Part shown: positions 12,676 to 29,482 of the stretch, in pieces
Layout: each line of letters opens with the position of its first letter
Position numbering within the stretch: position 1 is the first letter of the stretch
Assembly (NCBI GenBank): GCA_034927595.1
Contig: JAYFPQ010000065.1
Span: 2,994 to 66,993, forward strand
DNA: 64,000 nt
Direction: 5' to 3'
From: Christensenella sp.
Lineage (GTDB): Bacteria > Bacillota > Clostridia > Christensenellales > CAG-138
Position numbers and translations under genes: made by a program
Notes under the pieces: generated by a model
Seen by the model: the letters and a program-made list of their open reading frames with translations, nothing else
The model's database searches: none
What the model was told of the DNA's origin: nothing

Positions 12676-13947
12676 TTACCTCCGGATGATCGCATCGCGC
12701 GAGGCTCCGACGGAGATGTTCGAAATCCTGCAGCCGATGTTCTTTTCGATGAAGAGAATATACTCCTGCGCGGCCTTCGGCAAATCGTCGAAGTTGCGGC
12801 AGCCGGAGACGTCGCACTGCCAGCCGGGCATGTATTCGATTACGGGCTTGGCCTCCGCAATGACGGCGGGGAAGGGGAATTCGTCCGTCTTCTCGCCGTG
12901 GAGCTCGTACTGCGTGCAGATCGGAATCTGCTCCATATAGGAGAGGATATCGACCTTCGTGAGCGCGACCTCGGTTGCGCCCTGCATGGTGACGCCGTAG
13001 CGCGTGGCGACGATGTCCATGGGGCCTACGCGGCGGGGACGGCCGGTTGCCGCGCCGTATTCCGCGCCTTCTTCCCGAAGACGGGCCGCCTCTTCGCCGA
13101 ACCATTCCGCCGTGAACGGGCCTTCGCCGACGCAGGTGGAGTACGCCTTGACCACGCCGATCACGCGGTCAATCTTTGTACCCGGCATGCCTGCGCCAAT
13201 GGGCGCGTAGGCCGCCAGCGGCGCGGAACTGGAGGTGTAGGGGTAAATACCGAAATCCACGTCCCGAAGCACGCCGAGCTGCGCTTCAAAGAGAATGTTC
13301 TGTTTGCCGTCGACGCTGCGCAGGAACTTGCCCGTGTCGCAGAGGTAGGGCTTGAGCTGCTCGCCATAGGTCATCAGCCAATCCCAGACTTCGTCGAGCG
13401 AGTAGGTCTTTCCGCCGTAGACGTTCTTGAGCGTCAGGTTCTTCCACTCCAGAATGCCCTCGAGGCGCTTCTTGAGATATTCCGGATAGAACAGCTCGCC
13501 GAGCATCACGGTCTTCTTCATGTACTTGTCGCCATAGACCGGCGCGATGCCGCGCTTGGTCGAGCCGTACTTCGCGTCTAAAAGGCGCGCTTCTTCGAGC
13601 ACGTCCTGATCGCGATGGTAGGGGAACACGATCGGTGCGCGGTCGCTGATTTTGAGGTTTTCCGGCGAAACGGCGATGCCGTGGGACTGCAGCTCCGTAA
13701 TCTCCTCCAGCAGTTTTTCCGGATCGATGACCGTGCCGTTTCCGAGCACGTTGACAACGCCCTTGCGAAAAATACCGGAAGGCAGGAGGTGCAGCGCGAA
13801 TTTACCGTATTCGTTGACCACGGTATGGCCCGCGTTGTTGCCGCCCTGATAACGGACGACGACGTCAAAATCCGCCGCGACAAGGTCGACCATACGGCCC
13901 TTGCCCTCATCACCCCAGTTGATTCCTACGATTGCACAGTTCGACAT
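12676..13947 (-). CDS. purA: adenylosuccinate synthetase
   Basis: AAGGAG RBS before MSNCAIVGINWGDEGKGRMVD (the P-loop GDEGKG). GNNAGHT and GATGRPRR motifs are present. Confidence 0.92.
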   Translation of the reverse strand: MSNCAIVGINWGDEGKGRMVDLVAADFDVVVRYQGGNNAGHTVVNEYGKFALHLLPSGIFRKGVVNVLGNGTVIDPEKLLEEITELQSHGIAVSPENLKISDRAPIVFPYHRDQDVLEEARLLDAKYGSTKRGIAPVYGDKYMKKTVMLGELFYPEYLKKRLEGILEWKNLTLKNVYGGKTYSLDEVWDWLMTYGEQLKPYLCDTGKFLRSVDGKQNILFEAQLGVLRDVDFGIYPYTSSSAPLAAYAPIGAGMPGTKIDRVIGVVKAYSTCVGEGPFTAEWFGEEAARLREEGAEYGAATGRPRRVGPMDIVATRYGVTMQGATEVALTKVDILSYMEQIPICTQYELHGEKTDEFPFPAVIAEAKPVIEYMPGWQCDVSGCRNFDDLPKAAQEYILFIEKNIGCRISNISVGASRDAIIRR

Positions 13948-15771: not shown

Positions 15772-16710
15772 ATGAATGGAACGTTAAGCAGGTTATTTCG
15801 GGCACTCGGTACGATGAACACCATCACCGTGGAGCAGGCGGAGGATCACGCCCGCGCGGCGGACGCGCTGGAACGCGCCGAGCGCCGCGTGCTGGAGCTC
15901 GACGAGGTGCTCTCGGCGTTTCGTCCGGAAAGCGAGGTTTCGCTACTGAACGCCTCCGCCGGATGCAAGGAAGTTCCCGTCGGCGCGGACACGATGTTTC
16001 TATTAAAGGAAAGCAAGCGATATTCCGAATTGACCGGCGGCGCATTTTGCGTGACCACGCGCCCATTAAGCGCCCTCTGGGAACTCAACGCGCGTTGCGG
16101 CACCGTGCCGTCCCGTGCGGAGATTGAGCAGGCGCTGTTGCTCGCCAGCGACGAGGACATTGTGCTGGACGAGGAACACGGCACGGCGGCGCTCAAGCGT
16201 TTTGGACAGGCGGTGGACTTTGGCGGCATCGCGAAGGGATACGCCGCGGACGAGGTGCGCCGCATCCTGCTCGAAGGCGGGGTGACCAGCGCCTTGATCA
16301 ACCTCGGCGGAACGGTGATTTCACTGGGGCGGGAACGCAACGTCGGCATTCAGCATCCCGACCGCTGCACGGGCATCGCCATGGGGCGGGTCACGCTCTG
16401 CGACAACTGTGCGGTGACGTCCGGCGACTACGAGCGGTACTACGAGGTGGACGGCGTTCGATACCACCACATACTCGACCCGAGAACGGGATATCCCTCC
16501 CGCTCGAATCTGCGCAGCGTGACCTTGATCGGCGAGTCGGCAATGGAGCTGGACGCGCTCTCGACCGCGATCTTTGCGCTCGGCGCCGAAGATGGCCTGC
16601 CGCTGGCCGAGCAGGCGCGGGTGGAGTCCGTATTCGTAACGAACGCACTGGATGTCTTTTGTTCTGAGCACCTACGGGAGAACTTCTCTCTGTTGGCAAC
16701 GCCATCATAA
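15772..16710 (+). CDS. apbE: FAD:protein FMN transferase (ApbE), no signal peptide visible
   Basis: Motifs FRALGTMNTITV, SEVSLLN, VDFGGIAKGYAAD, YHHILDPRTG and DALSTAIFALG. Confidence 0.9.
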   Translation: MNGTLSRLFRALGTMNTITVEQAEDHARAADALERAERRVLELDEVLSAFRPESEVSLLNASAGCKEVPVGADTMFLLKESKRYSELTGGAFCVTTRPLSALWELNARCGTVPSRAEIEQALLLASDEDIVLDEEHGTAALKRFGQAVDFGGIAKGYAADEVRRILLEGGVTSALINLGGTVISLGRERNVGIQHPDRCTGIAMGRVTLCDNCAVTSGDYERYYEVDGVRYHHILDPRTGYPSRSNLRSVTLIGESAMELDALSTAIFALGAEDGLPLAEQARVESVFVTNALDVFCSEHLRENFSLLATPS

Positions 16711-16887
16711 GAAAGAATTTCGCGAAAAATTAGTTGAAAAGTCAGTATTGTGTATTGGTTACTGACTGTACTATAATTTTCGCATAACATAATAATGATT
16801 ATCAATATTACATGTGCGACAGGTCAATTCGAACTGGGTTTGCAAAACGAATACAGTGCGACCTTGGCAGCACAGAGGTTTGGTTTG

Positions 16888-18657
16888 ATGAAGAAGAAAT
16901 TATTCCATAAAATCACGGCGTTAACGCTCACGCGGCGCATCATACAGGTGCTGTCGTTTGTACTTTTTCCGGGGCTGTTTATCACTACCTTTTCGGCGAT
17001 CAAATCCATCTACGTCGCGCTGATTGCGGGAACGTTCAGCGCCTCCGCACTCGCGGGGCAGATTGTCCTCGCGGCGGCGATGCTGCTTATCACGGCGATC
17101 ATGGGGCGCTTCTTTTGCGGGTTCCTCTGCGCGTTTGGCACGATGGGCGACTTTTTCTGGTATTTGGGAACGAAGCTGAAGCTGCCTCGACCCAGGATCG
17201 GCTCAAAAGCAGATCGTATTCTTAAGAAACTGAAGTACGTGATTCTCGTGTTAATCGTACTCCTGATCTGGACGTTTGGCGCGACCATTCTGAACGGAAC
17301 GAACAACCCCTGGACGGTGTTTGGCATGTATGCCTCCGTCAAAGGCTGGGCGGATCTCTCCGCGCTGGTCTCCGTTGGGGCACTGCTGCTGCTGCTGATC
17401 ATCGTCGGCTCGCTGTTCATTGAGCGGATGTTCTGCCGCTATCTTTGCCCGCTGGGCGGCGTGTTTGCGATTGTCTCCAAGTTCCGGCTGTTCAAAATCC
17501 GCAAGCCGCGCACGAAGTGCGGCGCCTGCCGCGCCTGCACAAAGCGTTGCTCCATGGGCATTCCGCTGTATCGAACCAGTGTGGTGACGAGTGCGGAGTG
17601 CATCGATTGCATGAACTGCGTTGAAATCTGTCCGCGCGATAACGTGACGGCCAACCCCAAGCCCGCGTTCGCGGCGGCGGTTGCGGTTGTTGCACTCAGC
17701 GGCATGTACTACGTCGGCAACATTGCCGGCAGCGCAGCCGCGTCCTACCAGACGGTCACGGCGGCGGAGAGCGTCAGCAGCGCAAACACGGCGTCCGCCG
17801 GCCCGTTTGTGGACGGAAGCTATACCGGCAAAGCGGCGGGCTATCATGGTCAAACCTGCGTGCAGGTCACTGTTCAGAACGGCTATCTGGCGGATATCTC
17901 CGTTCTGTCGACGGGCGACGACATGGAGTTCTTTAACCAGGCAAAGAGCGGTGTGATCGCAGGGATTCTCTCCTCGCAGAGCGTCAACGTCGACACGGTT
18001 ACGGGCGCAACCTTCTCCAGCCGCGGCATCATCGACGCGGTGTCCAGCGCTATTTCCGGGGCACTTAAGACCAACAGCGACGTCTCGGTCTTTACGGCGG
18101 ACACGTCGAATCTGACGCCGACGCCCGTACTGACGCCAACGCCGTCTCCGGTGCCCACGCCTACGCCGACCGCGACGCCGGAGCAGACCAACGAAGGACC
18201 GATTACGCTGGCCGACGGCGAGTACACCGGTTCTGGCACCGGATTCCATGGAACGATAAAGGTTGCCATTACCATTCAAAACGGCTATCTCACGGGTATT
18301 CGAATTGTATCGTCCCATGACGATGAAAAATACTTCTCCCGCGCGAAAAGCAAAATGATCGAACGGATCATCTCCGCGCAGAGTCTGCAAGTGGACACGG
18401 TCTCCGGCGCAACCTACAGCAGCCAGGGCATTCTGGAAGCCGTTGCGGACGCGATTGGCAACAACTATCGCACCGCGTCAACCGCGACATCCGCGACAAC
18501 CGCGAAAACGGGGACGGTGGACACGGTTTCCGGTGCAACTACCATTAGTCGCGGTTCCGGCTCCAGCGCCGGTTCCGGCACCGGTTCGAGCGCATCGGGC
18601 GGCGGAACGAACGCAGCGGTCTATTATGACGACGATGATGACTACGACGACGACTAG
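16888..18657 (+). CDS. NapH-like membrane polyferredoxin fused to two FMN-binding domains, with a third short flavinylation motif and an acidic tail
   Basis: Motifs RFFCGFLCAFG and FCRYLCPLG. Two 4Fe-4S motifs (CGACRACTKRC, CIDCMNCVEICP). An extra TM helix follows. Two FMN_bind-like domains end in VDTVTGATFSS and VDTVSGATYSS, with a PT-rich linker between them. Start placed at MKKKLFHK. Confidence 0.8.
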   Translation: MKKKLFHKITALTLTRRIIQVLSFVLFPGLFITTFSAIKSIYVALIAGTFSASALAGQIVLAAAMLLITAIMGRFFCGFLCAFGTMGDFFWYLGTKLKLPRPRIGSKADRILKKLKYVILVLIVLLIWTFGATILNGTNNPWTVFGMYASVKGWADLSALVSVGALLLLLIIVGSLFIERMFCRYLCPLGGVFAIVSKFRLFKIRKPRTKCGACRACTKRCSMGIPLYRTSVVTSAECIDCMNCVEICPRDNVTANPKPAFAAAVAVVALSGMYYVGNIAGSAAASYQTVTAAESVSSANTASAGPFVDGSYTGKAAGYHGQTCVQVTVQNGYLADISVLSTGDDMEFFNQAKSGVIAGILSSQSVNVDTVTGATFSSRGIIDAVSSAISGALKTNSDVSVFTADTSNLTPTPVLTPTPSPVPTPTPTATPEQTNEGPITLADGEYTGSGTGFHGTIKVAITIQNGYLTGIRIVSSHDDEKYFSRAKSKMIERIISAQSLQVDTVSGATYSSQGILEAVADAIGNNYRTASTATSATTAKTGTVDTVSGATTISRGSGSSAGSGTGSSASGGGTNAAVYYDDDDDYDDD

Positions 18658-18672
18658 CGAGTAGGCGCTTCA

Positions 18673-18705
18673 CTCCCCTGCCAGAAACGGCGGGGGAGTT
18701 TTTTT
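18673..18705 (+). terminator. intrinsic terminator
   Basis: CTCCCCTGCC-AGAAAC-GGCGGGGGAG followed by TTTTTTT. Confidence 0.6.
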
Positions 18706-18791
18706 GTGTGTAAAGGGACTCCACGCTGCGTAGGTTGCGCCTAATTACGCGCAATGTTATGCTAACGGCGAAGAGAAGAGGAGTAACCACG

Positions 18792-18845
18792 ATGAACAAC
18801 AATATGACGGGGAGCGCAATTTACGCCTTGTGGGAACAAAGATGA
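18792..18845 (+). promoter_or_regulatory. 17-codon upstream ORF (MNNNMTGSAIYALWEQR) that duplicates the start of the downstream gene
   Basis: GAGGAG RBS lies 8 nt upstream. Its TGA stop overlaps the ATG of the XRE gene as ATGA. 12 of 17 residues match the first 17 residues of the downstream protein. Confidence 0.4.
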
Positions 18846-19426
18846 ATAACTACGTAACGGGGAGCGCAATACGCGCGCTGCGTGAGCAAAAGGGATATAC
18901 GCAAAAACAGCTCGCCGAACGCCTGCTGGTCAGCGACAAAGCGGTGTCCAAGTGGGAGTCTGGTCGCGGACTTCCGGACATCAGCCTGATTGAGCCGCTG
19001 GCAAAGACGCTTGGCGTTTCGGTGGCGGAGTTGCTCTCCGGCGAATATGTTCAAAACCGCAATCGCCACGGAAATATGCTCAAGAGCCGGTTTTACGTTT
19101 GCCCGGTCTGCGGAAACGCGATGTTCGCCACGGGGGAAGGTGCATTCAGTTGCTGCGGCGTGTCGCTGCCGCCGCTCGAACCGGAAGAGCCGGACGAGGC
19201 GCACGAAATTCGAACGGAGCGCATCGAGGACGAGCACTATGTTCGCTTGGACCACCCGATGGACAAGACGCACTACATTTCGTTTCTCGCGTTTGTGACG
19301 GCGGATCGTGTGCAATTTGTCAAGCTCTACCCGGAGCAGAATGCGGAAGCGCGGTTTCACCTATCCGGTCGCGGGGTACTCTACGCGCTCTGCAACCGCC
19401 ACGGGTTATTTAAAAAGAAAATTTGA
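18842..19426 (+). CDS. XRE-family HTH fused to a desulfoferrodoxin (2Fe-SOR)-like domain
   Basis: N-terminal HTH_3 (IRALREQKGYTQKQLAERLLVSDKAVSKWESG). C-terminal CxxC...CC centre-I pattern (YVCPVCGN...SCCG). SOR centre-II ligand pattern: AHEI, DHPMDKTHYI, CNRHG. Confidence 0.8.
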   Translation: MNNYVTGSAIRALREQKGYTQKQLAERLLVSDKAVSKWESGRGLPDISLIEPLAKTLGVSVAELLSGEYVQNRNRHGNMLKSRFYVCPVCGNAMFATGEGAFSCCGVSLPPLEPEEPDEAHEIRTERIEDEHYVRLDHPMDKTHYISFLAFVTADRVQFVKLYPEQNAEARFHLSGRGVLYALCNRHGLFKKKI

Positions 19427-19438
19427 GGAACAAGGACA

Positions 19439-20110
19439 ATGAAGATACTGGTGATCAACGGTTCGCCAAAGGGCGAACAAAGCGTTACGCTGAGCATCAC
19501 CCGCGCATTCATCGAAGGCATGGGCGAAACATACGAAACCATCGATACCATGCGGGTCAACGTGAAACCCTGCCTCGGCTGTTACGCCTGCTGGCGGATC
19601 ACACCGGGCAAATGCGTTCAGCAGGACGACATGGCGGGCATTCTGGATCGAATTCTCGAAAGCGAACTAGTGATTTGGTCGACGCCGCTTTACTGCTACA
19701 GCGTGCCTTCCAATGTCAAGGTGCTCTACGACCGGCTGATTCCGCTGGGCACAATGGAGCAGCGCGTCGACGAAGAGGGCGGCACCTACCACCCCGGACG
19801 GCAGAACATTCAAACGCAGATCATGCTGATCTCCGGCTGCGGTTTTCCGAATCGCGAGAACAACTATGAAGCGATGGACTTTCAGTTTAACCGGATGTTC
19901 AGCCCGACCTGCCCGCGCATCTACTGCGTCGAGTCCCCGCTGCTGGACATTCCGGAAGCAAAGCCTGTAGCGGATCAGTACCTCGCGTATGCGCGCCGCG
20001 CGGGAGCGGAGTTCAAAGCGACGGGTACGATCAGCGCGGAAACACAGGCGCTGCTCGATGCGCCGATGATCCCGCCGGACGTCTACCGCGCGCAGATCAA
20101 CGCACGGTAA
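19439..20110 (+). CDS. flavodoxin-fold NAD(P)H-dependent FMN reductase / iron-sulfur flavoprotein-like
   Basis: Motifs MKILVINGSPKG, KPCLGCYACW and VIWSTPLYCYSVPS. Confidence 0.8.
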   Translation: MKILVINGSPKGEQSVTLSITRAFIEGMGETYETIDTMRVNVKPCLGCYACWRITPGKCVQQDDMAGILDRILESELVIWSTPLYCYSVPSNVKVLYDRLIPLGTMEQRVDEEGGTYHPGRQNIQTQIMLISGCGFPNRENNYEAMDFQFNRMFSPTCPRIYCVESPLLDIPEAKPVADQYLAYARRAGAEFKATGTISAETQALLDAPMIPPDVYRAQINAR

Positions 20111-20152
20111 AATCCATTGAAATCCGCTATACTTCTGCGTAGAATATGATAG

Positions 20153-20190
20153 AATGGATTCGGCGATCAAGTATCGCCGAATCCATTTTT
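20153..20190 (+). terminator. strong hairpin terminator/attenuator between the two flavoprotein genes
   Basis: Perfect 15-bp stem AATGGATTCGGCGAT-CAAGT-ATCGCCGAATCCATT followed by TTT. The AAGGAG RBS of the next gene comes immediately after. Confidence 0.55.
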
Positions 20191-20204
20191 AAGGAGCAGC
20201 GCAG

Positions 20205-20645
20205 ATGAAATCGGTTGTATTATATTACACATTCGGCGGTTCAACGAAGCAGGAAGCGGAGAAGATTGGCGCCGAACAGGAAGCACCCGTCTACCGCGTA
20301 AAGGAAAAGCGCAACCGCAGCACATTTGGCTCGTTTCTGCCCGGCTGCTATCAGGCGTTGAAGCGCAAGCGGTCCAAGATCCTTCCGCTGGAAGTCGATT
20401 TGTCCGCGTTTGATCGCATTTACATCGGCGGGCCGGTTTGGGCGGCATGCCCCGCGCCCGCGGTGAATTCCATCATCGACCTGCTGCCCGCGGGCAAGGA
20501 GGTTGAGGTGTTTCTCTGCGCGGGCGGCAACGATCCGCGCCCGAGCGACGAGGTGACCAAACAGATGATTGAGGCCAAGGGCTGCAAGGTAACGAAGATT
20601 ACTACAATCGCCACCGGAAAGCCACCGGCCAAACTGAAAGATTAG
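20205..20645 (+). CDS. flavodoxin-like protein
   Basis: AAGGAG RBS. Motifs MKSVVLYYTFGGSTKQEAEKI and IYIGGPVWAACPAP, typical of short flavodoxin-family proteins. Confidence 0.7.
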   Translation: MKSVVLYYTFGGSTKQEAEKIGAEQEAPVYRVKEKRNRSTFGSFLPGCYQALKRKRSKILPLEVDLSAFDRIYIGGPVWAACPAPAVNSIIDLLPAGKEVEVFLCAGGNDPRPSDEVTKQMIEAKGCKVTKITTIATGKPPAKLKD

Positions 20646-20662
20646 CTGATACGAATACACAG

Positions 20663-20698
20663 AAAAGCGCGAACGGATTTTTCCGCCCGCGCTTTTTG
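20663..20698. terminator. bidirectional intrinsic terminator
   Basis: AAAAGCGCG...CGCGCTTTTT lies between convergent genes. Confidence 0.6.
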
Positions 20699-23307: not shown

Positions 23308-23721
23308 TTATTTTCGTTTGCTGCAATTCTTGCAGGTGCCAAAGAGCACCGTCTCTTTTTGATCGAGCGAAAACGCGCTTTGTTCAAGCACCTCGTCGAT
23401 GATCTGCTCGGAGACGGCATGGTTCATGTGAAAGAGGCTGCCGCAAGCGGTGCATTTCAGGTGCAGGTGCGCCTGGCACTCCTCGCAGGCGACGAGCTGG
23501 TATTGAAACCGCCGCCCGCGTTCCCCCGCGAACCGCTTGACCAGCCCTTCCGCAACCAACTTCGGAATCAGGCGGTAGAGCGTGCTCTTTCCGGGGAGTT
23601 GCTCCGACGGACAGCAGGAAGCCAACGCATCGTAGAGTTCCTCAATCGAGAACCCACGATCCGGATGCTCCTTTAGAAAGTCGAGCAAAACCCGCCGCTG
23701 CTGGGTTTCGTACTCCGCCAT
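23308..23721 (-). CDS. zur: Fur-family metalloregulator, probably Zur
   Basis: Winged helix (STLYRLIPKLVAEGLV). Two CxxC pairs (CEEC, CTAC...CKNC). It is the first gene of the zinc ABC operon. Confidence 0.8.
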   Translation of the reverse strand: MAEYETQQRRVLLDFLKEHPDRGFSIEELYDALASCCPSEQLPGKSTLYRLIPKLVAEGLVKRFAGERGRRFQYQLVACEECQAHLHLKCTACGSLFHMNHAVSEQIIDEVLEQSAFSLDQKETVLFGTCKNCSKRK

Positions 23722-24820: not shown

Positions 24821-27800
24821 ATGGACGATCGAGTGGGTATCTCCGGTGGATTGGACGCGCATTATGCGGAGTTTGCCAGGAGCATTGGCGTATCCGTAAA
24901 GCAATTGCGCGCCTGGACGGCGAAGACGAAATTCGACACGGAGTTTCTCGCGCAGTTTGGCCACCGCGTGTCCTGCACGGCGGTTGCGGCGTTTTGCGAG
25001 CCGGTGATCAAGCGCTTTGGCGAGCTGCCGACCGAAGGGCTGCTGCCGTATACCTACGAGGCGCTCTCCGTGGGCTTATACCCGTATTCCGGCGCGCCGC
25101 GCTCCACAAAGGGGCAAAAGATCGCGCAGAAGTTCTATCTTTCGGTGCTTTCGCGCCTGCTCGACGCGGAGCGGGACCAAGCGTTTGACCCGCTGCTGGA
25201 CTATCTGCCCGTTACGGAAGCGGAGCTGGAAAAAAGCGCCGTCCGCGCGCAATGCATTGTGTTTTCGGACGTGATGAAGAAGAGCAACTACCGTGAACTC
25301 CTTCGCATCGGCAAGGAGATTATGCGATTTGACCCCGCCGGGCATACCTTTGGCGTTCGGCATGTTGCCGTGCACATGGCGCGTCAGGCCGCCGCCGCAG
25401 GGCTTCCAGCGGACGTTGCGCTGGTGGCAGCCGCCGCGCTGAGCCACGACATCGGTAAGTTCGGCTGCCGCGGCGAGGACATGGGGCGCATTCCGTATCT
25501 GCACTATTATTACACCTGGAAGTGGCTCGAAGAGCGCGCCATGCCGGACATTGCGCATATCGCGGCGAACCACTCCACCTGGGATTTGGAGTTTGAAAAC
25601 CTGCCAATCGAGTCCCTGCTTTTAATCTACGCGGACTTTCGCGTTCGTGCGGAGGCGGGGGAGGACGGCAAGGACAAGACCATCGTCGGCACGCTGCAGG
25701 AGGCGCGGGATCGCATCTTCGTCAAGCTCGCGGACATGACGCCGGAAAAGAAGCTACGGTACGAAACGGTCTATCGCAAGCTGGACGATTTTGAGCGCTA
25801 TCTGGAGACGCACGGCGTCGGCACAAACGTCTTTGCCAGTTCGTTTGGCCTGCCGGAGAGCCGCGACGCGGCACTGCTGACTCAGGGCGAGGTCATTCGC
25901 GCGCTGACGAACCATGCGTTCGACAACAACATTCACCTGATGCATACGATTTCGGTCAGCGATTCGTTCGAGGCGCTGCTGGAGCAGGCGAGGGACGAAA
26001 AGAACCTGAACCGGATTCGCACCTACCTGATGCTGTTTGAAGAATACAGCACCTATATGACGCGCACGCATAAGCTGCTAACGTTGCGGTTTCTCTACGA
26101 ACTGCTCATGCACCACGACGGGGACGTTCGCCGCCACGCGGGGCGCATTATGGGCAGCATTCTCGCCAACTCCGGCCCGCGTTATCGAAAGGAACTGCCG
26201 CGCGGGGCGGGGTCGCTCGCGATTGCTCCGGCGCTGCACGCGGTGCTCAGCGAGAGCACGACGCTTTGGGACGACTACATTGAACTCTGCCTGCATCCGG
26301 ACTATAAGATTTCGCAAAAGCACGCCTCGCGCATCAGCAATTCACTCAAAACCATCTCCGGTAGCCTGTTTGCAAATTGCTCGCCCGAGGAGCGGCGCGG
26401 CTACTGGGAAAAGCTCTGCCGCCGGATTCTTTCGAGCGGCAGCGAGGAGTTGTTTGTGCTCATGGACACCCTGCCGCACATTCCGCAGAGCGTGATGACG
26501 CGCCTGGAAATCGAGCGCATGCTGCCGATTCTCGCGGGCGCGGCGGGTTCCATCGATGCGCGGATTCGCATCTGCGCCCTTCGCGCCATCCGCGCGGTTG
26601 TGGACGGGGACACGACGCTGCTCAAGCGCGGCGTGGAGGCGGTGCACCTTTCGTCGGACGCGGAGTTTGCCTCCGTCTGGATGCTCAACCGCCTGCGTCG
26701 GGAAGCAGGACTGTCGCCGCTGCCCGAACCGTCGTTTCCGGTTGCGGAAATCTATCTGGCAAACCTCAAGAGCAGCATTCCCTGGACAATGAAGCTCGCG
26801 CACATCGACCGGCTCTGCGAGTCCGTGCTGGAAAACGCGGACGAGGCGTTTCATATTGCGATGCATTTGAGCAACCTGCTCTCGGTCAGCGAGCACCTTC
26901 CGGTGCGCGAGCGTGCGGGGCAGGCGCTGGTGGAGATTTCCTCCGTGCTCTCGGTCGACCAGAAGAACGAAATCATGATCGACCTGCTGCGCGAGCTCGA
27001 GACCGGACAAAACGAAATCTCCGGCTACATTCCGCCCTACCTGGGGCGGCTGGTCTGCAACGTGCCGGAAAAGGAGATGGACGAGGCAATCGACTACCTG
27101 CAGGGGCTGATTCGCGCGTCCAATACGCGCGCGGCCCGCGCGGCGCTCGTTACGCTCTCCGTGATTCTAACGATCTATACCGCCGAAAACGGCGCGCGGA
27201 CGGACGCGGTGACCGAGCGCATCTTCGGCCTGCTGCTCACGGGCGTTGCGCATTTTGACGACGACATTCGCCTGACTGCGCTGGAGGCGATCTGCCGCAA
27301 CTACTTTGGAAACGACGATTGCCCGCTGCCCGCGCGGCGCGCCTGCCTCGTTCGATTCGGCAAAAAGCTCTTAACGCTGCTTGGCGAGCGGCGGGACGGC
27401 ATGCTCGCGTTCTTCAACGAAGCGGCGATGCTCAACCATCTCTACCGCTTCATCACGCTCTGCGAAACGAGCGGCGGCTTCACCTTTGAACCGCTCAAGC
27501 CGGTTGCGTTCTTTCCCGGCACGTTCGACCCGTTTTCCGCCGGGCACAAGCGCATTGTCGAGGAAATCGTCGTGCGCGGGTTTGAGGTGTACCTCTCAGT
27601 GGACGAGTTCAGCTGGAGCAAGCGCACGCTGGCAAAGCTGCTGCGGCGCGAAATCGTCAGCATGTCTGCCGCGTTTTTGCCGGACGTGTACCTCTTTCCA
27701 GACGAGATACCGGTCAACCTCGCCGTCGTGGACGACCTCAAGAAGCTCGGTTCGCTGTTTCGCGACCGCGAAATCTATCTCGTCGCCGGAAGCGACGTCA

Positions 27801-29482
27801 TTCTCAACGCGAGCGCCTATCGCCAGACCGGCCCCGGCACGGCGGCAACCTGGAACCACATTCTCTTTTTGCGCGTGGACACGGCGCACCAAAACGACCC
27901 GCGCCGCGCGGAGGACATCCTGCGCGGGAAGGTTGTTTCGCTGACGAGTCCGGCCTATTACGAGAGCGCGAGCAGCACGCAGATTCGCGACTACATCGAC
28001 AAGGATATGGACATCGGCATGCTGGTTGACCCCGTCGTGCAGGACTATATCTACGCGCGCGGGCTCTATCTAAGGATGCCGCAGTACAAGCGCGAGCTCA
28101 ACGAAATTGAGAAGAACCGCTGCGAGGTGCGCGAAACCGGCGAGGAATACAACGGCGTCTATCGCGACGATGCGGGCGGCGTGCTCGCGCACGTGAATTC
28201 CCGCAGCGTGAGCGTAACCGACCTGTACGACGTGCTCGGCGAGATGCGCCGCGCGGCGGAGACCGTGCGCCGGCTCGCTTCCGGACGGATCATCTGGATC
28301 ACGGAGACGAGCGGGGAAGGCGAGCCGCTTCGCGCGCTGCTCTGCGACCTGCTTGCGCGCTCGCTGATTCGCGAGCACACCTACGCGCTCTACCGCTGCG
28401 GAAGCGACGCGGAGCGCGAAATTGCGCAGCAACTCGGCTTTTTGCCCGTCTCCGGGCAGGAGTCGCTGCTGTATGCGGATATGCGCGCGCCGATCGTGCT
28501 GCTGGAGGACACGCTCCAGCGCATCAAGGAGCCGTTCGACACGGACGAGGCCGTCCGCGAGGCGGTGATGTCCACGCGGCCCGCGCTGCGCCGCTCGATC
28601 TGCGCCATGTTCCCCGGAACGCTGCTGTTGAGCTTCGACATGGAGGCGATCAACGCAGGGCTGATTGAGAAGGTTCGCGCGTACAACGGCGTTTCCAACG
28701 TGCCGCCGACGGAAAAGACGCTCGGTCGGGCCATGTGCGTGCCCTACGGCAAGGTGCTGGCCGAAACGATTGTGCCAAACACCGTGACCAAGGCGCTCCA
28801 CGCGGATAAGGCGTTCCATGCCAACGAGAGCGGATTTGACATTACGGAATCCCCCGGTTACTCGCCGCTGGTCAACCAGATCAAGACGCTCAAGTCCTTC
28901 CGCCGTCCCGTGCTGTTGATTGACGATCTGCTGCACAACGGCTATCGCCTTGAAAAGCTCGATCCGTTGTTCCGGCAGGAGGGCGTTGAGATTGAGCGGA
29001 TCATCGTTGGCATTTTGTCCGGTCGCGGGCTGGATTTGATGCGCGAGCAGAAGCGAAATGTGGACTGTGAATACTTCATTCCAAACATGCTCTACTGGTT
29101 CACGGAGAGCCTGATATACCCGTTTATCGGCGGGGACAGCGTCGAGGGCGCGATTGTTGAGCGCGATTTTCCGCCGAGCATCAACCTGATTTTGCCGTAC
29201 CAGTACCCCAAATATCTGCACGGCGCGCCGCCGTCCACCGTAAGGGAATATTCGCGCGTCGCGTTGCGAAACACGCTGACGATCATGACCGTTCTGGAGG
29301 AACGCTACCTGAAGCTCCAGGGGACCGGACTCACGCTGCGCCGACTTGGTGAGGCGTTACTGCGCCCGCGCCTGCCGGATAAGGGAACGCACATGAAATA
29401 CGACCTCAACACCGTCGCTTCGGCGTATATCAAGGACGATATCCGCCAGATGCGTCGAATCTCCCATGCGGAGGATGTGTAA
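24821..29482 (+). CDS. 1553-aa multidomain protein: HD phosphohydrolase, helical (HEAT/ARM-like) repeats, NadD/HIGH-type nucleotidyltransferase, unassigned middle domain, PRTase-like C-terminus
   Basis: GGAGGG RBS. HD motif H181...SHDIGK (nt 25442-25459). Nucleotidyltransferase motifs GTFDPFSAGH (nt 27518-27547) and SSTQIR (nt 27971-27988). PRPP-loop-like RRPVLLIDDLLHNGYR (nt 28901-28948). A single uninterrupted ORF. Confidence 0.85.
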   Translation: MDDRVGISGGLDAHYAEFARSIGVSVKQLRAWTAKTKFDTEFLAQFGHRVSCTAVAAFCEPVIKRFGELPTEGLLPYTYEALSVGLYPYSGAPRSTKGQKIAQKFYLSVLSRLLDAERDQAFDPLLDYLPVTEAELEKSAVRAQCIVFSDVMKKSNYRELLRIGKEIMRFDPAGHTFGVRHVAVHMARQAAAAGLPADVALVAAAALSHDIGKFGCRGEDMGRIPYLHYYYTWKWLEERAMPDIAHIAANHSTWDLEFENLPIESLLLIYADFRVRAEAGEDGKDKTIVGTLQEARDRIFVKLADMTPEKKLRYETVYRKLDDFERYLETHGVGTNVFASSFGLPESRDAALLTQGEVIRALTNHAFDNNIHLMHTISVSDSFEALLEQARDEKNLNRIRTYLMLFEEYSTYMTRTHKLLTLRFLYELLMHHDGDVRRHAGRIMGSILANSGPRYRKELPRGAGSLAIAPALHAVLSESTTLWDDYIELCLHPDYKISQKHASRISNSLKTISGSLFANCSPEERRGYWEKLCRRILSSGSEELFVLMDTLPHIPQSVMTRLEIERMLPILAGAAGSIDARIRICALRAIRAVVDGDTTLLKRGVEAVHLSSDAEFASVWMLNRLRREAGLSPLPEPSFPVAEIYLANLKSSIPWTMKLAHIDRLCESVLENADEAFHIAMHLSNLLSVSEHLPVRERAGQALVEISSVLSVDQKNEIMIDLLRELETGQNEISGYIPPYLGRLVCNVPEKEMDEAIDYLQGLIRASNTRAARAALVTLSVILTIYTAENGARTDAVTERIFGLLLTGVAHFDDDIRLTALEAICRNYFGNDDCPLPARRACLVRFGKKLLTLLGERRDGMLAFFNEAAMLNHLYRFITLCETSGGFTFEPLKPVAFFPGTFDPFSAGHKRIVEEIVVRGFEVYLSVDEFSWSKRTLAKLLRREIVSMSAAFLPDVYLFPDEIPVNLAVVDDLKKLGSLFRDREIYLVAGSDVILNASAYRQTGPGTAATWNHILFLRVDTAHQNDPRRAEDILRGKVVSLTSPAYYESASSTQIRDYIDKDMDIGMLVDPVVQDYIYARGLYLRMPQYKRELNEIEKNRCEVRETGEEYNGVYRDDAGGVLAHVNSRSVSVTDLYDVLGEMRRAAETVRRLASGRIIWITETSGEGEPLRALLCDLLARSLIREHTYALYRCGSDAEREIAQQLGFLPVSGQESLLYADMRAPIVLLEDTLQRIKEPFDTDEAVREAVMSTRPALRRSICAMFPGTLLLSFDMEAINAGLIEKVRAYNGVSNVPPTEKTLGRAMCVPYGKVLAETIVPNTVTKALHADKAFHANESGFDITESPGYSPLVNQIKTLKSFRRPVLLIDDLLHNGYRLEKLDPLFRQEGVEIERIIVGILSGRGLDLMREQKRNVDCEYFIPNMLYWFTESLIYPFIGGDSVEGAIVERDFPPSINLILPYQYPKYLHGAPPSTVREYSRVALRNTLTIMTVLEERYLKLQGTGLTLRRLGEALLRPRLPDKGTHMKYDLNTVASAYIKDDIRQMRRISHAEDV

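Follow-up and report, generated by a model that had tools for sequence, protein, structure and literature searches.

Introduction

Proteins in which an N-terminal helix-turn-helix (HTH) domain is followed by a desulforedoxin-like domain and a superoxide reductase (SOR) domain were catalogued in 2011 as the HTH-Dx-SOR class of SORGOdb (Lucchetti-Miganeh et al., PMC3116461). Its definition drew on 19 sequences and on nothing but their domain content; the text offers no function for it, and neither an operator nor an analysis of ligand conservation was given (PMC3116461). We describe here a member of this class encoded in a 64,000-nucleotide (nt) stretch of the genome of Christensenella sp. (assembly GCA_034927595.1, contig JAYFPQ010000065.1, positions 2,994 to 66,993 of the forward strand), hereafter referred to as the window. 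The gene (18842-19426, + strand) is an intact open reading frame (ORF) of 194 amino acids (aa) without internal stops, and its product shows the same order of domains as the catalogued class, with no architectural difference. The regulator thus belongs to a known class and the fusion itself is not new. What is new here is the operator-promoter unit of HTH-Dx-SOR genes, a palindrome placed against the promoter of the regulator gene and inherited with it across three phyla.

An operator-promoter unit inherited with the gene

The predicted operator, CTCCACGCTGCGTAGGTTG, lies at 18719-18737 (+ strand), is conserved upstream of homologues and has the palindromic core CCACG-N3-CGTAGG (18721-18734). 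The family consensus T-C-(T/C)-A-C-G-N3-C-G-T-A-G-G-T-(T/G)-G, which holds the palindrome C(T/C)ACG-N3-CGTAGGT, was found in nearly every aligned upstream region. Its occurrence was counted in 78 loci chosen by protein similarity only and having at least 200 nt of upstream sequence: 77 carried a sequence with at most one mismatch to CTACGNNNCGTAGG within 250 nt upstream of the gene, against 2 of 936 control windows taken from the same loci (0.2%). The operator-bearing loci of this set span three phyla, i.e., Bacillota, Coriobacteriia and a spirochaete. In 53 unique upstream segments, the motif positions were 92-100% conserved, except for two variable ones (T/C in second place in the core, T/G before the final G), and a -10-like hexamer of the TATGCT, CATACT or GATAAT type stood at a fixed distance, +37 to +42 from the operator.

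The -35 element (TTGCnn) starts right after the right half-site of the operator and is followed by a 17-nt spacer. In the window, the predicted sigma-70-type promoter (18735-18763, + strand) thus comprises a -35 TTGCGC (18735-18740), the 17-nt spacer, a TG (18755-18756) and a -10 TATGCT (18758-18763). If the transcription start is placed about 7 nt past the -10, the centre of the palindrome would lie near -42.5, a position that would fit either activation through sigma region 4, as for lambda cI, or occlusion of the -35. The lambda operator OR2 occupies the same position, about -42, at PRM. For a cis element that has been passed on with the gene in three phyla, the simplest reading is an operator for the gene's own product. 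The first-pass annotation had proposed a DNA-binding protein from the HTH domain; the conserved palindrome on the gene's own promoter, present in essentially all relatives, points the same way, and the regulator is very probably a real sequence-specific DNA-binding protein. Two regions had been suggested there as binding probes: 18706-18841 includes the predicted operator, while 19427-20204 is without it and consists almost entirely of flavoprotein coding sequence.

An exact-pattern scan of metagenome contigs returned 121 matches; in 76 of them a homologous gene follows directly, and a further one is truncated by the end of its contig. The rest were mostly intragenic and came from soil or marine samples; besides these, the matches outside an intact regulator gene comprised remnants of a regulator locus (L109, L143) and a duplicated promoter (L196). 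The scan revealed no convincing second target for a regulon. A search within 5 kilobases on either side of 80 related loci likewise found only self sites. In the window, 18719-18737 is the sole full operator match. Other matches, at 13025, 23619 and 43044 (one to three mismatches), lie inside coding sequence and were treated as chance. A near-perfect local palindrome, TTGCGCCTAA/TTACGCGCAA (18735-18754), had been the first operator candidate and was dropped, being not conserved in relatives.

Several stray copies of the unit deserve mention in their own right. Locus L109 is decayed (around 430-700), with the operator-promoter and only the first 20 or so regulator codons left; in L143 the operator-promoter is kept, the regulator gene is deleted and a ruvA-like gene lies directly downstream; and L196 bears a second operator-promoter copy (position 1028) with no regulator gene downstream. 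These three loci and L115 belong to one lineage in which a hairpin, (A)CTCCACG...CGYGGAG(T), holds the operator in its loop; a T-run comes next, and the promoter region thus doubles as a terminator-like structure for the upstream gene. In the gut metagenome contig L121 (6941-7040), the right half of the operator lies within a long inverted repeat, GTTTCGTAGGTTGTATATATAAAA ... TTTTATATATACAACCTACGAAAC, between tgt-like and chorismate-synthase-like genes, with no regulator gene nearby.

Domain architecture and predicted fold

The ATG at 18842 was taken as the start of the regulator in preference to a GTG farther upstream (18830), because more than 100 database homologues, 194-196 aa long and 69-97% identical, could be aligned with the protein over its whole length (100%). 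Four parts can be distinguished: an HTH domain of the XRE type (residues 10-64; 18869-19033), a conserved linker (residues 65-82), a desulforedoxin-like Cys4 domain (residues 83-110; 19088-19171) and an SOR-like beta-sandwich (residues 111-194; 19172-19423), all on the + strand. The N-terminal domain announced by the first-pass annotation was clearly recovered by PF01381 (HTH_3), which matched residues 10-64 over its full profile (1-55) with an E-value of 1.3e-16 and 60.8 bits for a gathering score of 23.

Profile searches, also proposed there, gave a more divided answer for the C-terminal part. PF01880 (Desulfoferrodox) matched residues 136-192 with 25.1 bits, above its gathering score of 22.2, the match opening at profile position 34, past the catalytic loop. 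TIGR00320 (dfx_rbo) matched residues 83-192 with an E-value of 7.9e-13, but its 48.7 bits fell below the equivalog cut-off of 146.9, and PF06397 (Desulfoferrod_N) reached only 12.5 of the 23 bits needed. At the level of individual proteins, residues 83-191 matched the 2Fe-SOR of D. baarsii (2ji2, residues 6-123; E 4.3e-9).

An AlphaFold2 model based on an alignment of 64 family sequences reached a mean predicted local distance difference test (pLDDT) of 92.8 and a predicted template modelling score (pTM) of 0.78, with the linker modelled at a pLDDT of 82-88. Five HTH helices were modelled (7-17, 21-28, 32-40, 47-57 and 61-66), in a Cro/cI-type fold. In Foldseek searches, the N-terminal 64 residues superposed on the DNA complexes of the P22 c2 repressor and SinR, with template modelling (TM) scores of 0.85-0.9 and root-mean-square deviations of 1.2-1.3 Å, and the C-terminal 120 residues superposed on 2ji2, 1vzg and 1dfx (E 1.6e-10, TM 0.74). 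On the basis of these profile, sequence and model comparisons, the C-terminal module is homologous to 2Fe superoxide reductase.

Metal ligands and departure from superoxide reductase

All nine residues named as metal ligands by the first-pass annotation fell on canonical SOR positions in both HMMER and MAFFT alignments. At centre I, C87, C90, C104 and C105 align with Cys10, Cys13, Cys29 and Cys30 of the D. baarsii SOR; at centre II, made of four His and one Cys, H121, H138, H144, C184 and H187 align with His49, His69, His75, Cys116 and His119, the numbers being those of the D. baarsii ligands.

The wording 'complete', which had been applied to this domain, nevertheless proved too strong. The loop that reads E47-K48-H49-V-P in SOR is E119-A120-H121-E-I in the regulator, so that the catalytic Lys is replaced by Ala120, as it is lost in nearly all relatives; moreover, the PF06397 and TIGR00320 scores were below threshold, and the spacing of centre I is CX2CX13CC. 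The pattern given for centre I of the class in SORGOdb is CX2CX15CC (PMC3116461). The module is, as judged from these alignments, a diverged relative of 2Fe-SOR and not an orthologue. For the idea of a DNA-tethered detoxifier, also raised at first, the intact ligands appear to be the sole point in favour. The SOR of Ignicoccus hospitalis, which is devoid of the canonical Lys, is reportedly still active, so that the regulator, too, may have SOR activity.

Distribution and conservation of the family

The question of how widespread the fusion is, left to a survey by the first-pass annotation, can now be answered: relatives occur in at least 478 species genomes and form 192 clusters at 50% identity (E < 1e-30). 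Their hosts include Christensenellaceae, Oscillospiraceae, other Clostridia, Coriobacteriia (Collinsella, Slackia, Enorma, Paraeggerthella) and one spirochaete metagenome-assembled genome (MAG); an uncultured Christensenella MAG (L001) encodes a protein 99% identical to the regulator. Relatives are labelled 'DNA-binding XRE family transcriptional regulator/desulfoferrodoxin' by JGI and merely 'helix-turn-helix domain-containing protein' by NCBI.

Conservation was evaluated in 58 full-length representatives at no more than 50% identity, this protein counted and full-length matches only being retained. Three of the centre I Cys were invariant (58/58), and the fourth was Cys in 53 representatives and His in the other five. 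Centre II was fully canonical (H, H, H, C, H) in about 27 of the 58, had its last His replaced by Asp in 10 and was multiply degenerate in about 13. The position of Lys48 was occupied by Lys in only four. In the regulator's own clade, i.e., 121 sequences at 69% identity or more, the nine ligands were invariant with one exception (H187N), the Glu47 equivalent varied (E, A, P, D or G) and the Lys48 equivalent was E, A or D, never K. Along the protein, conservation is highest in the HTH with its recognition helix V-S-D-K-A-V-S-K-W-E, in the linker residues N72, N74, R75 and N78 and in the metal ligands; family-wide, the recognition helix (S/T)(D/E)KA(V/I)SKWE is near-invariant. The module thus looks selected as a metal site and not as an enzyme, a pattern which fits a metal-binding regulator better than an enzyme of superoxide turnover.

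Distant members in which centre II is degenerate were retrieved by exact-protein look-up, and most of them keep a recognisable operator. It reads CTACT-N3-CGTAGG in L203 and L204, CTACT-N3-GGTAGG in L210 and, as a symmetric variant, CTACT-N3-AGTAGG in the separate loci L202 and L212, such a symmetric change being expected for a dimer on a palindrome. Only the left half-site was found in L201, L207 and L209. No recognisable operator was seen in L208 and L211, whose recognition helices have T/P-Q-A instead of D/E-K-A. Nor was one found within 250 nt upstream of L205 and L206; in these, a promoter is not expected, because the gene sits 8 nt behind the preceding gene.

Some members carry extra C-terminal domains after the HTH-Dx-SOR core, namely GNAT, the antibiotic-recognition domain TipAS, an LCM-type methyltransferase or DUF2087 (L098, L196, P0131, P0128, P0179, P0210). 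The products of L098 and L196 are 381 aa long. A GNAT acetyltransferase extension was observed in 27 motif-selected metagenome loci, and in L107 GNAT is encoded by a separate ORF 27 nt downstream of the regulator gene. TipAS and DUF2087 are typical ligand domains of regulators, and their presence on other members counts toward a regulator role.

Leader and genomic neighbourhood

The leader of the gene in the window is unusual in bearing a tandem 50-nt duplication (18785-18884, + strand), whose two copies, 72% identical, comprise the ribosome-binding site and the first 14 codons. The duplication is present in L001, absent in L002 (97% identical protein), and created a 17-codon upstream ORF, MNNNMTGSAIYALWEQR (18792-18845, + strand), the TGA of which overlaps the ATG of the regulator (ATGA). 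Since the only good Shine-Dalgarno sequence, AGAGGAG (18777-18783), precedes this upstream ORF, translation of the regulator may depend on coupling. An Rfam scan of the leader found no RNA element.

Downstream, a gene for a flavodoxin-fold flavin mononucleotide (FMN) reductase of 223 aa (19439-20110, + strand; Pfam Flavodoxin_2/FMN_red) follows the regulator after a 12-nt gap without terminator, and should therefore share the regulator's promoter. Its motif, C45-X2-C48-X2-C51-X7-C59, conforms to the compact CX2CX2CX5-7C motif of the iron-sulfur flavoproteins (Isf), a family linked to the reduction of O2 and H2O2 in anaerobes (PMC3164229). The flavoprotein may be called Isf-like only, as fold and motif fit and a direct match to a solved Isf was not found. 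In an unrelated lineage (L099), too, the regulator gene has a homologue of the flavoprotein gene behind it (32% identity), and within Christensenellaceae only some of the loci possess the flavoprotein gene. A small flavodoxin-like gene (146 aa; 20205-20645, + strand), of variable presence among relatives, has a promoter-like site of its own (20117-20145) and may also be on the regulator's transcript; it is followed by a bidirectional terminator (20663-20696).

Upstream, the gene of an ApbE flavin transferase (15772-16710) precedes that of a 620-aa membrane protein (16795-18657) with a NapH/NosR-like 4Fe-4S ferredoxin part and two FMN_bind domains, the two together looking like an extracytoplasmic flavinylated electron-transfer system. 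In the membrane protein, Thr/Pro-rich linkers join the domains, and the tail is acidic and rich in Tyr and Asp (YYDDDDDYDDD). This unit ends in a strong intrinsic terminator (18672-18710, + strand; an 11-bp GC-rich stem, then a T-run), which marks it as separate from the regulator gene. The first-pass annotation had seen the protein as a possible sensor for the flanking flavoprotein and ApbE genes; control of the ApbE/FMN-binding genes is not borne out, as they lie upstream of the regulator, end in that terminator, are without an operator copy and are syntenic in Christensenellaceae only.

Farther away, a Fur-family gene (23308-23721, - strand), with weak best matches to PerR and Fur models, heads a znuA/znuC/znuB-type operon. 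Control of this operon by the regulator was considered and rejected: the operon is convergent, has its own Fur-like gene and lacks an operator. The operator-like sequence at 23619-23637, with three mismatches, lies inside the fur-like gene and is probably due to chance. One Christensenellaceae genome (OY762290.1) has two paralogous regulators (L009, L015), each tail-to-tail with a fur-like/znuA/znuC/znuB operon; regulator and metal-transporter block seem to have been duplicated together. The neighbourhood as a whole (ApbE, NapH/NosR-like protein, regulator, optional flavoprotein, optional flavodoxin, convergent fur-like/znuA/znuC/znuB) is conserved only within Christensenellaceae, and outside this family the regulator gene has other, unrelated genes beside it (RpiR, a GH106-like protein, dehydrogenases, GNAT and others). 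Elsewhere in the window, an ORF of 1553 aa (24821-29482, + strand) shows, by eye, HD-domain-like and nucleotidyltransferase-like motifs (HxGH-type FDPFSAGH).

Proposed mechanism and alternative explanations

We propose that the protein is an autoregulated XRE-family factor that dimerises through its Dx-SOR module and probably also uses it to sense redox state or oxidants. Taken as a whole, this proposal seems to us about equally likely to be right or wrong; its parts differ in strength, the role of regulator being likely and that of oxidant or redox sensor falling slightly short of an even chance. The dimeric factor would bind C(T/C)ACG-N3-CGTAGGT against the -35 of its own promoter, resulting in autoregulation, and in this window its control would extend to the co-transcribed gene of the Isf-like flavoprotein and perhaps to that of the flavodoxin. 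2Fe-SORs are homodimers, and the desulfoferrodoxin-derived module would supply the dimer interface together with two iron sites, Fe(Cys)4 and Fe(His)4Cys. These would most likely constitute the sensor: their oxidation by superoxide, O2 or peroxide, or their re-reduction, may change the conformation of the module, and this change would pass through the conserved linker to the HTH domains and alter operator occupancy. We infer that the regulator, rather than another factor, binds the site, that iron is bound and that redox state is the signal. A bolder extension, which we regard as tentative and more probably wrong than right, is that HTH-Dx-SOR proteins are widespread direct superoxide- or O2-sensing factors of strict anaerobes (gut Christensenellaceae, Oscillospiraceae, Coriobacteriia), in which oxidation of Fe(His)4Cys or Fe(Cys)4 would switch binding to CTACG-N3-CGTAG. 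If true, this would be a sensing chemistry unrelated to that of SoxR, OxyR, PerR and FNR, drawn from a domesticated detoxification enzyme that has shed its catalytic lysine.

A number of observations weigh against our proposal. HTH_3-like domains fused to iron enzymes (HppE, HEPD, MPnS) are structural and not DNA-binding. About a quarter of the representatives have a degenerate centre II, and because most of these still keep the operator, sensing through centre II cannot be a universal mechanism. In this window the left half-site is imperfect (CCACG). No regulon member beyond the regulator's own operon emerged from the window, from the surroundings of the 80 related loci or from the metagenome scan, and no neighbour conserved across lineages was found in the compared loci. 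Finally, literature searches returned the SORGOdb class definition only, and no functional study of any HTH-Dx-SOR member.

Some of these observations are what one would expect if the Dx-SOR module were a scaffold only, i.e., a co-opted dimerisation domain with structural metal sites on an autoregulated XRE factor that senses no redox change, the signal lying elsewhere or autoregulation being constitutive. Centre I is kept while many members, most of them retaining the operator, lose centre II, the catalytic Lys is absent, and some members add ligand domains (TipAS, GNAT, DUF2087) as though the core did not sense. Such a scaffold nevertheless seems unlikely to us, as the five centre II ligands are kept throughout the 121 sequences of the own clade although the loop varies, which is hard to explain for a functionless site buried in no interface. 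Loss of the Lys bears in the opposite direction on a bifunctional 'trigger enzyme', a working superoxide reductase that would also be an autoregulator, with the co-transcribed flavoprotein as its reductase. The full ligand set, the predicted 2Fe-SOR fold and the FMN reductase-like gene 12 nt downstream all suit such an enzyme, as does the Ignicoccus hospitalis precedent, the structures 4bk8 and 4brv of that SOR being among the matches. Yet in nearly all members Ala, Glu or Asp stands in place of Lys48, and the resulting acidity of the loop should repel superoxide; the module is about 100 bits short of the dfx equivalog cut-off, most lineages are without the flavoprotein partner, and transcription factors are usually of low abundance. 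We thus hold the trigger enzyme to be quite unlikely.

The metal sites could also act through their occupancy, DNA binding being set by Fe or Zn in the Cys4 site, the His4Cys site or both, and not by redox state. An invariant Cys4 site could indeed hold Zn or Fe, and in Christensenellaceae the gene persistently adjoins the fur-like znuACB-type operon, twice in the genome with two paralogues. This transporter operon is, however, convergent and has a Fur-family regulator of its own, its nearest approach to an operator is the three-mismatch sequence inside the fur gene, and the linkage is lost outside Christensenellaceae; a sensor of metal availability is, in our view, very unlikely. The explanation we find hardly tenable is a vestigial HTH as in HppE, which would leave the protein as an enzyme or electron carrier only and assign the palindrome to another regulator. 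It is suggested by Foldseek matches to HppE, HEPD and MPnS, iron enzymes with an HTH_3-like N-terminal domain, but the recognition helix ranks with the best-conserved stretches of the protein, and a palindrome that has accompanied the gene in three phyla calls for a binder that has done the same.

Comparison with known systems and significance

To our knowledge, strict gut anaerobes are without well-understood superoxide sensors, SoxR and OxyR being often absent, and we know of no description of an SOR-type Fe(His)4Cys site as a sensor. For such a role, a regulator derived from a superoxide reductase would readily suggest itself, and this one is present in hundreds of species, including cultivable Collinsella. 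The operator-promoter unit offers a DNA probe (18719-18737), a motif for regulon prediction and targets for mutation, which makes the sensor hypothesis testable. Should the module prove to be only a scaffold, the family would still illustrate the recruitment of an enzyme fold as a dimerisation domain. The class has stood in databases since 2011 without a function, and the value of the present finding lies in its bearing on an uncharacterised class.

Among the systems that can be set beside it, 2Fe-SOR or desulfoferrodoxin (D. baarsii 2ji1/2ji2, D. desulfuricans 1dfx) has the same fold (TM 0.74) and homologous ligands at both centres. The regulator is about 30% identical to it and differs by its added HTH and linker, its X13 rather than X15 spacing, its EAHEI loop and the degenerate centre II in part of the family. 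With lambda cI, 434 and P22 c2 repressors, SinR, ClgR and DdrO, it shares the HTH_3 fold (TM 0.9 for P22 c2) and a predicted palindromic operator; as with lambda OR2 at PRM, its predicted site abuts its own -35 at about -42. In contrast to these lambda cI-type and other XRE regulators, its C-terminal part is a metalloprotein module and not a LexA-like, SinI-binding or protease-target domain, and its operator bears no relation to theirs in sequence. TrtA of Treponema denticola, an XRE regulator that has been discussed beside desulfoferrodoxin, was set aside as an unrelated protein of 104 aa.

HppE, HEPD and MPnS likewise combine an XRE-like helical domain with a non-haem iron domain, according to Foldseek. 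Their iron domain is a cupin, however, and their helical domain serves for oligomerisation, whereas in the present family a recognition helix and its cognate palindrome are conserved. With SoxR ([2Fe-2S]), PerR (Fe/Zn), FNR ([4Fe-4S]) and Rex, the likeness is a functional analogy only, namely a DNA-binding domain joined to a redox-active metal site in a context of oxidative stress: there is no homology with any of these, and the DNA-binding fold is of the XRE type here, as opposed to MerR, Fur or CRP.

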